A DNA stretch of 64,000 nt from an uncultured Pseudomonadales bacterium (GCA_964515115.1 CAZESB010000001.1:48292-112291); one strand, 5' to 3'; positions 46,702 to 58,911 are shown, numbered from the stretch's first letter. Notes: generated by a model from the letters alone, not told the origin. Translations and numbers: made by a program.

Positions 46702-46774
46702 GGGCCTGTAGCTCAGTTGGTAGAGCGCACGATTCGCATTCGTGAGGTCAGGGGTTCGACTCCCCTCAGGTCCA
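46702..46774 (+). tRNA. tRNA-Ala (anticodon CGC)
   Basis: GGGCCTGTAGCTCAGTTGGTAGAGCGCACGATTCGCATTCGTGAGGTCAGGGGTTCGACTCCCCTCAGGTCCA; G3:U70 Ala identity pair; 7-nt loop TTCGCAT; CCA not encoded. Confidence 0.85.
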
Positions 46775-51573: not shown

Positions 51574-51659
51574 GCCGTGGTGGCGGAATAGGCAGACGCG
51601 CGAGACTCAAAATCTCGTTCTCTTTACCGGGAGTGTGGGTTCGATTCCCACCCACGGCA
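51574..51659 (+). tRNA. tRNA-Leu (anticodon CAA), class II with long variable arm
   Basis: GCCGTGGTGGCGGAATAGGCAGACGCGCGAGACTCAAAATCTCGTTCTCTTTACCGGGAGTGTGGGTTCGATTCCCACCCACGGCA; 7-nt loop CTCAAAA. Confidence 0.85.
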
Positions 51660-53569: not shown

Positions 53570-54395
53570 TTTGCCGGTTATATACGAAGATGAAGATTTG
53601 TTGGTAGTGAATAAACCAGCCGGAGTGGTGGTCAATCGGGCAGCCACTTATCAAGGCTGGACAGTACAAGATTGGCTGGAGGAACGGTTGGGGGAGAGCG
53701 GAGAAACTGGAGCTAAAGCTAGAGATTGGGAAAAGTTGGTGCCTGAAGATTTTACTGCTCAGTATGGCAGTCCTGAAAAAATTTTTGAAAACAGGCTAGG
53801 AATGGTGCACCGACTGGACAAAGACACCAGTGGGGCCTTATTGCTGGCTAAAAATCCCGGTGTTTTGGTCAATCTGTTGGCGCAGTTTAAAAATCGCCAG
53901 GTACAAAAAAAATATTTGTGCCTGACTCACGGTCGGTTTGTGTTTGAGAGTGGGGCGGTGAGGTTGCCGGTGGGCCGCCGGCCGGACAATCGCCGGCTGT
54001 TTGGTATCGTACCCGATGGCCGGCCGGCGGAAACAGTCTACCAAGTCCTCAAATACTACCCCCACTTCAACGCCCAACTGCTGCCGGAAAACATCAGCAA
54101 AAACCAGCGTCTGAGCCTGTACCAAGGTTTTAGCCTGGTAGAATGTTTGCCGAAAACCGGCCGCACCCACCAGATTAGAGTTCATCTGCAACACCTGCAA
54201 CACCCCATCGTGGGCGATAGTATTTATGTGGGCAAAAAACGGGCTAAACTCGACGCTCTTTGGTGCCCGAGGCAGTTTTTGCACGCCAGTAGCCTGACTT
54301 TTACTCACTCTCGCTCCCGGAAACAGCTCACCATCCAAGCTGAACTACTCGCCGATCTCAAAGACGTCTTGAAGTTTGTTTCTGAATCAGCGTAA
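53556..54395 (+). CDS. rluD: RluA-family 23S rRNA pseudouridine synthase
   Basis: VHRLDKDTSGALLLAKN catalytic Asp motif; 14-nt overlap with lspA. Confidence 0.8.
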   Translation: MKRFDLPVIYEDEDLLVVNKPAGVVVNRAATYQGWTVQDWLEERLGESGETGAKARDWEKLVPEDFTAQYGSPEKIFENRLGMVHRLDKDTSGALLLAKNPGVLVNLLAQFKNRQVQKKYLCLTHGRFVFESGAVRLPVGRRPDNRRLFGIVPDGRPAETVYQVLKYYPHFNAQLLPENISKNQRLSLYQGFSLVECLPKTGRTHQIRVHLQHLQHPIVGDSIYVGKKRAKLDALWCPRQFLHASSLTFTHSRSRKQLTIQAELLADLKDVLKFVSESA

Positions 54396-54405
54396 AATGG
54401 GCTGC

Positions 54406-55023
54406 ATGATGAAATTTCCAGTCACCCAATTTGACAACAACGGCGCTGCCTTTATTACTCCCACCTGGGAGGAACTGAACCAACTAGCTTTTGCGGTGGC
54501 GCAAAAAATCCTCACCGACGGCGCTCAGTTTGACAGAATTGTCACTCTGGCTAAAGGTGGCTGGCCCATGACTCGCTCATTGGTAGATTATCTCAACGTT
54601 AGGGAAGTGGCCAGCATTGGCATCAAATTTTATGCCGGTATCAACAAAAGGATGAGCCGACCGGAAATTTATCAGGATTTGCCGGTGATTGTGAAGGGGG
54701 AAAGTGTTTTGCTTTTTGACGATGTGGCCGATTCCGGTGAGTCCTTAGAATTTACTCGCGAGTACTTATTGGATCAGGGTGTAGCTTCGGTCAAATGTGC
54801 CACTTTGTTTTACAAACCGCACTCCACGTTCAAACCGAATTATTTTGCCGGCGAAACCACGGCTTGGATTATTTTCCCCTACGAAACCCTGGAAAGCATG
54901 AAATTACTCGAGGAGACTTGGCTTAAGCAGGGCCTGAAAAAAGCAGCCATTATTGACCGGTTTATAAAACTTGGGATTAAAGACCGCTACATCAATCATT
55001 ACCAAAAGCTTCATAATTTATAG
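54406..55023 (+). CDS. gpt: Purine phosphoribosyltransferase, xanthine-guanine PRTase (Gpt)-like
   Basis: TWEELNQLAFAVAQKI...IVTLAKGGWPMTRSLVDYL, PRPP loop LLFDDVADSGESL, LFYKP, TAWIIFPYE parallel the E. coli Gpt blocks. Confidence 0.6.
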   Translation: MMKFPVTQFDNNGAAFITPTWEELNQLAFAVAQKILTDGAQFDRIVTLAKGGWPMTRSLVDYLNVREVASIGIKFYAGINKRMSRPEIYQDLPVIVKGESVLLFDDVADSGESLEFTREYLLDQGVASVKCATLFYKPHSTFKPNYFAGETTAWIIFPYETLESMKLLEETWLKQGLKKAAIIDRFIKLGIKDRYINHYQKLHNL

Positions 55024-55025
55024 GT

Positions 55026-55054
55026 TTGACAAACCGCAAATAATATCCTATAAT
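55026..55054 (+). promoter_or_regulatory. Perfect-consensus sigma70 promoter TTGACA-17 nt-TATAAT
   Basis: Read directly: TTGACA at 55026-55031, 17-nt spacer, TATAAT at 55049-55054. Confidence 0.6.
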
Positions 55055-55248
55055 AATAAAATTAGGGCTTGAAATCATTTCGGCCTTTACTTAGAATGCA
55101 CTAATTACTACAAGTTGGTGGAAGCGCTTTTGCAGTTTTCCTCCCAAGCAACGAACCGGCCAGGCTTACGTGGACACCAAACACCAGGCACGGAGAAACC
55201 AAGTGAAGAAAGCAGTAGAGGCGTTTTTTAGATAAATTATTTTAGAAT

Positions 55249-56688
55249 ATGTCATTGTTAGAGTTGAACGAATCTGGTTCTAACCAAAGCCAGCATGAAT
55301 TAGAATTACTCCTTTGCAAATTTTTGGAGGCTAATAAATTCAATAATTTAGCAGTAGTTCTTTCTTGGCTTCATCATCAAGAGCAAATTGCAACTGAGCC
55401 GGACGCTGAGCACAACATTGATTCAATGGCTGAGTTTGCGGCATGGCAACCCGACAGTCCTCAAATGTTAGAAGTGTGGGGTGGCACCAACTGCATTGGC
55501 ATGGTTCAGTTATTCAAGGAGATTTTGGAAGATCGCGGCTATCAGACTGAACTGGCGGTGACAACAAGCAATAACCTCCCAGAAGGTGTTTCAATAGTGG
55601 ATGTTCCTTTTCAGCACGCGGCGCTATATGTTACTGATGATGAAGGGATCATGTATTTGGTTGATCCAGGATTAGGTTTGGTTAAACCTATTGAGCTAAC
55701 TGAGAATTCTGTTGAAATAGCCGGCAGGAAATACACGCTGGAATTACATGAAGAAATGCAGCGGCTTCGTGTCATTAAGCCGAGTGGCGAAGAACTTCAT
55801 TTTGATTTTGTCTCAGCACCACCTGATATGGACTTAGAAAGAAATATTCAGAAACCACTTCTGAGGGCAACTAGTGTCTTTAAAATTGATAAATTCAATG
55901 CTGAAGGACAAAAAACCTGCTCTATTAAAATTGATTTAATTAGAAAGTCGGTCTCTTATTTTGTTCTTCAAGAAGTAGAAACACGTTCATTTGCAGAACT
56001 CCCAACTATTGAAATAGGCAAAGCAGGTCATTTATTTCGTAATGTCATGGCAGAATTAGATGATCCTGAACTCGCGAGTAAGTTGCGTTCTATAGCGGCA
56101 AGAGAAGATGACATAGTGGCAATTTGGTTTGATGAATTGCAAAAGCAATATTATTTAGAAAACCCGGAGCAACTTTCTCCGTTTGAAACACCATCCAGTC
56201 AATTGCTTGAGCGAGGTTATCAAGCTGGCGGGGTGGTGGCGGTGCTTCATGACGGCGCTGGCAAAGTAATACTTTATGAAGTACCAGAGGGAATGGATAA
56301 ACCGCAAATCAACAGGTATTCAGGAAACCTTAATGTTTTTACTGAAACGGCTGAATTTATGCCTGGTGAAAATGGCGGTATGATTATGGAAGAGTTAGAA
56401 CCAAATATGCAGCGAATTTATCAGGAAGAAATTGGTCTAACTCCACCTGAAGAATTTATTTATCGTGAAGTAGATTATAGAGCAGGTTCACCGGTTAGGG
56501 CCAGAGTTATAATTCAGCAAGTAGAGAAAGATGCTTTGTCTGCAGTAATGGCTTATAATATTGATAGTACAGAAATTGGCCAGGTGCAATGGGTTAATTT
56601 GCACGAACTAGATAAGCAACCAATTGAACCGAATGCTCGGGCAATTTTGCAAAAACTTCTAGATGCTGGTGTTCTTAGGCATGCATAA
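55249..56688 (+). CDS. Fusion protein: N-terminal arylamine N-acetyltransferase (NAT)-like Cys-His-Asp domain plus C-terminal degenerate Nudix-like region
   Basis: VWGGTNCIGMVQLF (NAT RGGxCxxxNxLF), 40 aa later FQHAALYVTDDEGIMYLVDPGLG (NAT HLLLxVxxxxxxYIVDxGFG) with NAT-like Cys/His/Asp spacing; C-terminus FMPGENGGMIMEELEPNMQRIYQEEIGL approximates a Nudix box with a 1-residue deletion. Confidence 0.5.
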   Translation: MSLLELNESGSNQSQHELELLLCKFLEANKFNNLAVVLSWLHHQEQIATEPDAEHNIDSMAEFAAWQPDSPQMLEVWGGTNCIGMVQLFKEILEDRGYQTELAVTTSNNLPEGVSIVDVPFQHAALYVTDDEGIMYLVDPGLGLVKPIELTENSVEIAGRKYTLELHEEMQRLRVIKPSGEELHFDFVSAPPDMDLERNIQKPLLRATSVFKIDKFNAEGQKTCSIKIDLIRKSVSYFVLQEVETRSFAELPTIEIGKAGHLFRNVMAELDDPELASKLRSIAAREDDIVAIWFDELQKQYYLENPEQLSPFETPSSQLLERGYQAGGVVAVLHDGAGKVILYEVPEGMDKPQINRYSGNLNVFTETAEFMPGENGGMIMEELEPNMQRIYQEEIGLTPPEEFIYREVDYRAGSPVRARVIIQQVEKDALSAVMAYNIDSTEIGQVQWVNLHELDKQPIEPNARAILQKLLDAGVLRHA

Positions 56689-57448
56689 AACAAAAATTGG
56701 CGTTTTTGCCTCTAAGGAAATATTACTAGACTTATACACTGCTGCTAGCAGTAATAAGTTGATCATCTTTTTTCATGGTTGTTGCGGCACTGTTTACGAT
56801 ACAAATCCTACAACTTATCAATTATTAGCTGATAAATTAGTTGCCACTAACACTGCCAATGTTGGGTTTTATGAATCAACCCGCAGACTCAGAAAGACTG
56901 AGGATACCGAGGAAATGGATTTTTTTCAGTTTGCTTCAGAAGCTTTTGGTGGCAAATCTTTTATAGATGAAGTAGAAGAGGGTAGACGAAGTGTTAAGTA
57001 CCTTCTGGATGAATACCGCAAACAAAAGCAGACAGCCCCAGAGCTTTATTTTGCAGGATTTTCTTTGGGTGGACTAATTGCTGCTACACTTACTCAAGAG
57101 TTCAAAGCAAAAGGCACGATGCTTTTTGGCTCTGCGAGTAAATTTGCTGTAATGGATAATTTACCCATACTTGGTTCAGCAGCAGAAATGAAAGCGGTTG
57201 CTACTATTTCTGAAACCGCGGCTAAAAGTATTGCCACACCGGTGTTGTTGATTAGGGGTACCGATGATGATACAGCCTCTCATGCCGATGCGTTGCAACT
57301 TTTTTCAGCCTTTAAGAAAGCTAAAGTAAAAACCTTTATTGAGTGGCAAGGCATTGATCATCGCTTTAAACTCAATCGTGGCGAACCTGATAGTGCTCTA
57401 ATTGACAGATTGGCAGCGGAAATTAGTCGTTTTATCAACTCTGTCTAA
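56681..57448 (+). CDS. Alpha/beta hydrolase (dienelactone hydrolase-like)
   Basis: Nucleophile elbow GFSLGG, acid RGTDDD, His GIDHRF; start overlaps the upstream stop by 8 nt. Confidence 0.6.
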   Translation: MHKTKIGVFASKEILLDLYTAASSNKLIIFFHGCCGTVYDTNPTTYQLLADKLVATNTANVGFYESTRRLRKTEDTEEMDFFQFASEAFGGKSFIDEVEEGRRSVKYLLDEYRKQKQTAPELYFAGFSLGGLIAATLTQEFKAKGTMLFGSASKFAVMDNLPILGSAAEMKAVATISETAAKSIATPVLLIRGTDDDTASHADALQLFSAFKKAKVKTFIEWQGIDHRFKLNRGEPDSALIDRLAAEISRFINSV

Positions 57449-58296: not shown

Positions 58297-58911
58297 TCAC
58301 AATCGATTTTCCCTCGCTTTAATCAACTCCTCAGCAATCTTTTTCGCCTCCTCATGCCTGAACCTAGGCAGTCGCAACTTATAAATGCTGTGCTGCATAA
58401 AGCGCTTTTCGTCTGCTGGCGAAAGAGTGGGAGTAACCCGCTCAACGTCAAGCATGCCCAGGGTGTCGGCTTCCATCAGTAGTAGCTCATCCTCATCTTT
58501 CAGCTCACGGACTTGGTCGTGAACCGCCACCAGATGAACAATCCGCCATTTCTGCCGGTCAGTAAAGTAATTATTGAGGCGCTGATAAAGCAGCTGCTCG
58601 ATTTTCTCGGCTCCGCGCTGCATGTGCAGTTTTTTTCTGTCGATAATATTGTTGAGCCAGCGCGAATCAGCATCCGCAAACAAACCAGCGTAACCCCAGT
58701 CATGAGCGTAGGCCGCGGTAATTAAGACTGCCGGATCCAGATCGGGGCTGTCAAACCCATCAAGGTTATCAAGCCTGGCAAGCAGCTCTTTCAGCCAATA
58801 AACTACCGCTTCAGTGTGGGGTTTATCATAATCTTTACGCCCCTGATTAGCCAAATCTTTGAGAATAATTTGCCGCAGCAACTGCTCAGCCTTGGGTTTT
58901 ATTTGTTTCAC
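58297..58911 (-). CDS. HD-domain phosphohydrolase
   Basis: H...HTEAV and AAYAHDWGY (HD dyad), later His/Asp; GTG start. Confidence 0.55.
   Translation of the reverse strand: MKQIKPKAEQLLRQIILKDLANQGRKDYDKPHTEAVVYWLKELLARLDNLDGFDSPDLDPAVLITAAYAHDWGYAGLFADADSRWLNNIIDRKKLHMQRGAEKIEQLLYQRLNNYFTDRQKWRIVHLVAVHDQVRELKDEDELLLMEADTLGMLDVERVTPTLSPADEKRFMQHSIYKLRLPRFRHEEAKKIAEELIKARENRL

Follow-up and report, generated by a model that had tools for sequence, protein, structure and literature searches.

A conserved leader RNA with competing terminator and antiterminator-type folds is a candidate transcription attenuator in Patescibacteria

Ahead of an operon that begins with an arylamine-N-acetyltransferase (NAT)-like, NUDIX-like gene, the 64-kb stretch of DNA analyzed here (the window) carries a leader RNA that belongs to a conserved family of Patescibacteria RNAs. 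In this family, a covarying hairpin that forms a terminator competes with a second conserved pairing. We consider it probable that the region serves as leader to the NAT/NUDIX operon and represents one copy of a cis-acting transcription attenuator, allowing for an effector of any kind, proteins included, and the two alternative folds probably switch downstream nucleotide-salvage-type genes on and off. A preliminary description of the window had suggested that the NAT-like operon might be controlled by a riboswitch-like or attenuator leader, or else that the region encodes an independent small RNA; our analysis supports this pair of readings and favors the attenuator. That description had also named lack of conservation in related genomes as grounds for abandoning the idea, and we find the leader conserved, with covariation, in 65 distinct sequences.

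Patescibacteria, ultra-small bacteria also known as CPR, have tiny genomes and lack de novo nucleotide synthesis, and to our knowledge very little is known about gene regulation in these organisms. We found no RNA regulator described for Patescibacteria in Rfam 15 or in the searchable literature.

The leader ends in a long intrinsic terminator hairpin

The leader separates a purine-type phosphoribosyltransferase (PRT) gene (54,376–55,023, + strand) from an ORF of 479 aa (55,249–56,688, +), and all of its parts described below are given on the + strand. The ATG of the ORF at 55,249 lies 195 nt past the −10 hexamer of the promoter discussed below, in agreement with the distance of about 190 nt first noted. 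The leader is also GC-richer than its surroundings, as had been proposed, with a GC content of 0.51 at 55,100–55,199 as compared with 0.30–0.37 in the flanking intergenic DNA.

In the minimum free energy (MFE) fold, a long irregular hairpin of ~107 nt (55,121–55,227) runs straight into UUUUUU (55,224–55,229), with the ORF starting 19 nt past the U-run. The leader fold has a predicted energy of −40.5 kcal/mol and a shuffle z-score of −2.66, a modest value that is no more than suggestive by itself; conservation and covariation among relatives are decisive. The basal stem, P1, is formed by 55,121–55,133 and 55,215–55,227, and P2 by 55,135–55,143 and 55,205–55,213, on the basis of folding and covariation. 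An internal loop, delimited by alignment, follows P2, with a 5′ half, J (CCAAGCAACGAA, 55,144–55,155; family consensus CCAAGNNAC(R)A), and a 3′ half, J′ (AGAAACCAAGU, 55,194–55,204; family consensus G-GANACCAAG-N(N)). Between the two halves, an apical stem-loop of variable length and sequence, P3, is predicted at 55,156–55,193. P1 and P2 followed by U6 constitute an intrinsic (Rho-independent) terminator, and the leader end that had attracted attention, GAGGCGTTTTTT (55,218–55,229), is the 3′ strand of the basal stem together with the U-run. By contrast, two copies of CCAGGC that had been read as a helix (55,160–55,165 and 55,184–55,189) form a direct repeat inside P3 and are not paired with each other.

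Two further hairpins are predicted in the 5′ part of the leader. One, at 55,064–55,087 in the MFE fold of 55,061–55,232, would be present only in transcripts from the more distal of two promoters, and it overlaps the −35 hexamer of the other. The second, P0 (CACUAAUU/AGUUGGUG, 55,099–55,120), abuts a conserved element that we call box a. A hairpin ending within 4 nt of box a occurs in just 26 of 66 family copies, and we dropped P0 as a defining element of the family.

The leader belongs to an RNA family of Patescibacteria

A search of species-representative genomes with the PRT protein as query gave 55 loci. All come from Patescibacteria metagenome-assembled genomes (MAGs), many of which bear the labels Pacebacteria, Beckwithbacteria, Woesebacteria or Microgenomates. 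In L001, the nearest of these loci, the PRT protein is 93% identical to that of the window. BLAST, nhmmer and fuzzy motif searches located sequences matching the center of the leader in many of the loci, immediately beside the PRT gene. From 5′ to 3′, family members consist of a promoter, the variable P0, box a ((U)UGCGARRGC), CACC with a short linker, box c (GCUUUCGCUC), CCAAGNNAC(R)A, the variable P3, G-GANACCAAG-N(N), box d (GAGC(N)GAAAGC), a linker, GGUG and the U-run. More compactly, a strong promoter precedes box a (GCGARRGC) and a hairpin in which P1 and P2 are separated from P3 by the CCAAGNNAC / GANACCAAG internal loop, with a U-run immediately behind. J is invariant in the alignment of PRT-anchored loci, and the U-run, of five to nine U residues, follows the hairpin in all complete members.

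We also scanned a metagenome collection with an exact pattern of the core only, which yielded 62 loci (L056–L117). Sixty of these also show all of the features that the pattern did not require, namely box a, P1, the U-run and the promoter; the remaining two are chance matches in GC-rich coding DNA that were rejected by the covariance model described next. Invariance of the CCAAG core in L056–L117 is imposed by the scan pattern, and the independent evidence for the core comes from the PRT-anchored loci only. A covariance model, R1, built from 24 compact members matched the window copy, which was outside the seed alignment (A2), over its full length (model positions 1–93) at 55,116–55,228, with 44 bits and an E-value of ~1e-8. 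In total, R1 accounts for 66 copies (65 distinct sequences) in Patescibacteria MAG and metagenome loci, including one additional PRT-linked copy in L018. Within the 64-kb window R1 found no second copy, even with filters off. We rejected a phage origin of the family: a pattern scan of viral contigs gave five matches, only one of which was scored by the model, weakly (27 bits) and without the J′ core.

An Rfam/Infernal scan, the check originally proposed for the leader, identified no matching family among the 4227 models of Rfam 15. Across the whole window, only two tRNAs exceeded the Rfam gathering thresholds (46,702–46,774 and 51,574–51,659, +), and at E ≤ 10 the segment 54,950–55,350 gave only two noise matches. 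In ten other member loci, the only match at E ≤ 1 was to tmRNA, elsewhere in the locus. The Rfam 15 models for riboswitches, 6S, SRP, tmRNA, RNase P and the PyrR site all failed to match the RNA, and our literature searches turned up no CPR riboswitch or small RNA of such a kind. The family appears to be undescribed so far; its kind, the terminator-based cis-regulatory RNA, is well known.

Three loci carry the motif in tandem. Behind the first copy in L061, L087 and L108 come, in order, ~200 nt lacking any conserved ORF, another promoter, a variant copy of the motif and then the gene. The AT-rich spacer between the copies (L061 255–490, +; L087 1325–1535, −; L108 760–1000, −) contains three conserved TAT(C/A/G)AGACT boxes (TGTTATCAGACT, CTATAAGACTCT and TTATGAGACTGTATC) around the promoter of the second copy, which may be operator sites for a DNA-binding regulator. 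The second copy (L087 1219–1330, −; L108 646–766, −; L061 481–600, +) is a distinct subtype with a longer box a region (GCGAACUGGCAC) and a P3 loop region, CCCUCAGAG, that is conserved between loci, and it precedes a family of 330–390-aa proteins with HDxGK-like motifs. The paired copies could represent two attenuators in series, or an orphan small RNA gene.

Covariation supports the terminator form

We measured base pairing in the terminator form across the 65 distinct sequences, as the preliminary description had recommended doing on related leaders, and found that P1, P2 and P3 covary. Paired cells amounted to 89.5% of the total, as compared with 47–58% in controls in which the strands were slid. 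Double changes were present at 16 of the 21 pairs, with 181 compensatory cells, values reached by none of 500 shuffles. P1 was paired in 97.6% of cells and all five modelled P3 pairs covary, while the proximal P2 pairs (GCUC/GAGC) hardly vary and hence are uninformative on covariation. Since the alignment was fitted to the model and the sequences are related, these counts lean towards structure; the 17 PRT-anchored copies alone gave the same picture, with 92% of cells paired and 63 compensatory cells. G-U pairs are abundant at four pair positions (39, 17, 16 and 13 cells), indicating that the + strand is the functional one.

Like a riboswitch in the generic sense, the RNA combines stems that covary with unpaired nucleotides that do not change, within a conserved structured domain. 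In the alignment, both strands of the internal loop carry CCAAG, facing each other beside P2, and a conserved GA lies beside P3. If C41–G141 and G45–C137 (columns of alignment A3) are paired, they would enclose a symmetric C-A / A-A / A-C loop.

The same textbook arrangement of hairpin and U-run, with no sensing at all, would be expected if a strong promoter simply ran into an inter-operon terminator or insulator of unusual length. However, the loop nucleotides are invariant and the stems covary among loci in which the neighboring PRT is only ~50–60% identical to that of the window, which is more than a plain terminator needs, and a promoter feeding a constitutive terminator would be futile. 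An attenuator governed by a leader peptide could be imagined from a 38-codon ORF (55,115–55,231) that overlaps the window RNA. This ORF is not conserved, and each reading frame anchored on the core is interrupted by stops in 44–53 of 65 members (68–82%); together with the freely varying length of P3, this indicates that no peptide is conserved within the RNA, and we rejected the leader-peptide attenuator. We regard the two accounts, even taken together, as very improbable.

A conserved pairing between box a and box c competes with the terminator

When applied to our first alignment, RNAalifold returned a pairing of box a with box c rather than the long hairpin. In the large alignment, this helix of nine pairs (a:c) is 88% paired, as compared with 39–55% when slid, and GC-to-AU or AU-to-GC swaps occur at three of its pairs (25 cells). 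Box c has a C-to-U change in L009, L039, L041, L042 and L081, each time with a matching change in box a; box d is also changed in the first four of these loci. In the small PRT-anchored subset the signal is weak, with six compensatory cells, a number reached by 11 of 500 shuffles. We therefore rate the a:c helix as well supported by conserved complementarity and moderately supported by covariation.

Because the a:c helix shares alignment columns with the 5′ strands of P1 and P2, the two folds are mutually exclusive, and formation of a:c excludes the terminator; this is a terminator/antiterminator architecture, and mutually exclusive structures of this sort are what the generic riboswitch definition describes as an expression platform. 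When the RNA was cut before box d, a:c was present in the MFE fold of 53 of 64 copies, while in the full-length RNA the terminator form was the more stable by an average of 4.6 kcal/mol. According to these folding predictions, the pattern fits a kinetically controlled terminator/antiterminator switch. In the window, the short helix GGAAGCGCTTTTGCAGTTTTCC (55,120–55,141) singled out earlier does form a hairpin in the MFE fold of the nascent transcript, and it is the competitor of the terminator. This predicted antiterminator-type hairpin, GGAAGCGC-UUUU-GC(A)GUUUUC (55,120–55,140), occupies the 5′ strands of P1 and P2 in a register shifted from the consensus, and the window copy is a divergent family member.

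Near-consensus promoters are a family trait

Transcription of the leader is expected from one or both of two promoters. The distal site (55,026–55,054, +) is TTGACA-17-TATAAT, a 12/12 match to the sigma-70 consensus with its −35 at 55,026–55,031 and its −10 at 55,049–55,054, from which a transcript would begin at ~55,061; position 55,055, where the leader was originally taken to start, is the base directly 3′ of the −10 hexamer. The proximal, promoter-like site (55,069–55,097, +), absent from the preliminary description, is TTGAAA-17-TAGAAT, a 10/12 match 43 nt 3′ of the distal site and 20 nt 5′ of box a. Alignment shows the distal promoter to be retained in L001 as TTGACA-17-TATAAC, and it places the promoters of the closest relatives, L001, L003 and L005, at the position of the proximal site. 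In most family members the best promoter lies 15–67 nt 5′ of box a, a range at whose far end the distal promoter of the window falls. The window RNA could start from the distal promoter, the proximal promoter or both.

The distal site had been called textbook-perfect and unusual for its genome. It is indeed the only 12/12 sigma-70 site in the 64-kb window, where 0.017 would be expected from first-order Markov random sequences. Across the RNA family, however, near-consensus promoters are common: many members score 11/12, and L014 and L018 match the window at 12/12. Because such promoters are the rule among members, the perfect promoter is a family trait rather than a peculiarity of this leader.

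Between the PRT stop codon and the proximal −35 hexamer, the stretch ATAATATCCTATAATAATAAAATTAGGGCTTGAAAT (55,040–55,075) is recognizably kept in L001, L003 and L005 (CCTATAxAA...AAATTrGGxCTTG), where the PRT is ~60% identical to that of the window, or 93% in L001. This stretch may act as an UP-element or operator, or may mark where the PRT transcript ends.

Position relative to neighboring genes

In the window, PRT is the last gene of an lgt-lspA-rluD-PRT string, and it is a frequent syntenic neighbor of the RNA. We observed the RNA adjoining PRT in the window and in 15 PRT-anchored loci. In 12 of these loci it lies 3′ of the gene, in L013 and L027 it lies 5′, and L004 has a copy on either side. 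Counted over 55 copies, the upstream gene is PRT in 17 and rluD-like in 10. Two loci have a tmRNA gene (RF00023) just 5′ of the motif on the opposite strand (L072 341–736, −, 83 bits; L091 1119–1530, −, 76 bits), so the motif can adjoin another RNA gene as well as rluD or PRT.

Downstream, the RNA is closely followed by a gene. Sixty copies have sufficient sequence to judge, and in 53 of them an ORF in the same orientation begins no more than 55 nt past the U-run; three others have gaps of 76–106 nt, and the 56 copies for which an ORF was called have a median gap of 15.5 nt. This leaves no space for a promoter belonging to the downstream gene itself. The 479-aa ORF of the window has an arylamine-N-acetyltransferase-like N-terminus (Acetyltransf_2, 23.7 bits) and a NUDIX-like C-terminus (18 bits). 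It overlaps the second downstream ORF, which encodes an alpha/beta-hydrolase (56,663–57,448, +), by 26 nt (56,663–56,688), suggesting that one operon lies behind the leader. A convergent HD-domain gene is located at 58,297–58,911 (−).

The position of the RNA bears on whether it is instead a free-standing small RNA gene, trans-acting or protein-binding, whose own strong promoter and terminator would leave the downstream genes to leak-through transcription or unrelated to it, with the a:c hairpin merely a folding intermediate. Conservation is greater for the upstream neighbor than for the downstream gene, contrary to what riboswitches usually show, and a syntenic position after rluD or PRT with variable genes behind it is what such an account expects. 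It also draws on the family-wide near-consensus promoters and on the long, stable hairpin with its U5–9 tract in every complete copy, which together have the look of an abundant small RNA gene, as well as on the presence of a single copy in the window and the orphan first copies of L061, L087 and L108, which have no ORF behind them. However, it is not obvious what a stable small RNA would gain from a conserved 8–9-bp pairing in competition with its own terminator, and the spacing of 53 of 60 copies, the two copies flanking one gene in L004 and the lack of a match to 6S, SRP, tmRNA, RNase P or any other Rfam RNA likewise speak against it. On balance, we judge a free-standing small RNA to be fairly unlikely.

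Most assignable downstream genes have a nucleotide theme

We scanned 54 downstream proteins, which form 21 clusters, against Pfam. Matches were to phosphoribosyltransferases of two kinds (five proteins), GNAT acetyltransferase (three), adenosine deaminase (two), SLOG/LOG (two), NAT plus NUDIX (two), Maf at a sub-threshold score (two) and inosine-uridine nucleoside hydrolase (one). The assignable genes are mostly nucleobase, nucleoside or nucleotide enzymes, a theme that rests on a minority of all downstream genes because 37 of the 54 proteins have no Pfam match. Such a theme suits organisms that live on salvage.

Among the unassigned proteins, cluster c1 (L057 1622–2563, −; L066 3416–4207, +; six more) and cluster c5 (L009 4896–5936, +; L039, L041 and L042) lie 3′ of the motif and are remote homologues of 250–390 aa (hhalign probability 96%), with no Pfam or PDB match. 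A third family (e.g., L093 842–1699) has the sub-threshold Pfam match to Maf, aligned in register with the Maf N-terminal motifs. Clusters c1 and c5 and the Maf-like family are candidate CPR-specific nucleotide-handling enzymes. PDB profile searches with the unannotated downstream families returned nothing useful, and hhalign comparisons of downstream families with E. coli Maf (a validated probe) and RdgB (an unvalidated one) were not significant, with N-terminal motifs in register. For one unannotated downstream protein, a homologue search found two proteins only, and an AlphaFold model from the resulting two-sequence alignment (pLDDT 40) was discarded.

PRT as a candidate effector

The same terminator/antiterminator switch could respond to an RNA-binding protein, for example the neighboring PRT acting like PyrR, or a dimer bound to the CCAAG/CCAAG loop. 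Attenuators of the pyr operon lie around pyrR in Bacillus subtilis, a layout of which the PRT-adjacent copies described above are reminiscent by analogy, and the presence of the same CCAAG on both loop strands beside P2 would suit a symmetric binder. However, 29 of 44 close PRT loci have no RNA copy within 4 kb, and in the pattern-derived metagenome sample, which was not selected via PRT, the upstream gene is PRT in only 5 of ~49 copies. The best NCBIfam matches of PRT were to xanthine PRT and hypoxanthine-guanine PRT, at 47 and 41 bits and thus far under the cut-offs, with the PyrR model absent from its matches, and the Rfam family of PyrR binding sites (RF00515) does not match the RNA. With adjacency frequent in the PRT-anchored sample, rare in the pattern-derived one and unaccompanied by a PyrR signature, we rejected PyrR-like autoregulation by PRT, and we consider a protein effector of any sort to be quite improbable.

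Comparison with known regulatory RNAs

Purine riboswitches in Firmicutes and Vibrio control xpt (xanthine PRT) and add (adenosine deaminase). The guanine/adenine class (RF00167) resembles the family described here in its terminator-based expression platform and in analogous gene classes, with PRT and adenosine deaminase genes following our motif. It differs in fold: where purine riboswitches have a three-way junction with kissing loops, our RNA is a rod-like hairpin interrupted by an internal loop, and the RF00167 covariance model does not match it. The PyrR attenuators of the pyr operon (RF00515) share the logic of terminator versus antiterminator and, as in L004, have copies 5′ and 3′ of a gene with a PRT fold. 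Unlike them, our RNA has no evident third, anti-antiterminator hairpin and lacks the PyrR binding-site consensus; the neighboring PRT is purine-type by its weak best matches, and most copies are not beside PRT.

Strong promoters, a rod-like hairpin with internal loops, an own terminator and a length of ~110–170 nt are shared with 6S and SRP/4.5S RNAs. Neither is matched in Rfam, however, and our RNA has the conserved competing hairpin; its apical loop is not conserved, unlike the GNRA loop of SRP RNA, and its 5′ and 3′ ends are not paired with each other, unlike those of 6S RNA.

A precedent for such an architecture is the HMP-PP riboswitch (thiS motif), an ON switch in which the aptamer is embedded in a terminator hairpin and the effector stabilizes a competing fold (Atilho et al., 2019; PMC6478431). 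Both RNAs place conserved nucleotides inside what looks like a classic intrinsic terminator hairpin with a U-run (PMC6478431). Both have a second consensus fold that keeps the tip of the hairpin (P3 in our family) and swaps the base of the terminator for another stem (here a:c), and both occur with terminators in tandem arrangements. The two share no sequence or Rfam similarity. Our RNA has roughly double the length, arranges its conserved nucleotides as a large internal loop in place of a hairpin loop or pseudoknot, lies beside nucleotide-salvage-type instead of thiamin genes, and occurs in Patescibacteria.

Discussion

The observations above lead us to propose the following model of attenuation. 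Transcription would begin from the perfect distal promoter, from the proximal one or from both, and the nascent RNA would first fold box a with box c (55,120–55,140). Once the 3′ half has been made, the same nucleotides may instead form the hairpin of P1, P2, internal loop and P3, which, ending in the U-run at 55,224–55,229, would terminate transcription 19 nt before the start codon. An effector contacting the conserved CCAAG.../...GANACCAAG nucleotides that flank P3 would pick the winning fold, with a:c plus P3 giving read-through and P1-P2-P3 giving termination, and this choice would control the NAT/NUDIX-hydrolase operon. The effector would most likely be a small molecule from nucleobase or nucleotide salvage and less likely a protein. 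We infer that termination is regulated, that there is an effector and of what kind, and in which direction the switch works. An effector acting on the hairpin loop or terminator could make an OFF switch, and one acting on the competing fold an ON switch, by analogy with the HMP-PP riboswitch.

A more specific version of this attenuator model, which we put forward tentatively as possible rather than probable, is that the pseudo-symmetric CCAAG/CCAAG loop forms an aptamer embedded in the terminator that senses a purine or salvage metabolite such as a nucleobase, nucleoside or non-canonical nucleotide. This would be the first riboswitch class specific to Patescibacteria/CPR, with a regulon of salvage and house-cleaning enzymes together with several CPR-only protein families that lack an assigned function and would thereby gain a functional label.

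A conserved, covariation-supported terminator switch 5′ of salvage-type genes is a candidate metabolite sensor in Patescibacteria. If a metabolite-sensing switch is confirmed, a pathway context for several currently unannotated protein families would follow. So would a native regulatory part for Patescibacteria, a group reported to lack inducible expression tools (PMC11665869). Even if it turned out to be a small RNA, the molecule would be new, widespread in the CPR radiation and highly expressed.
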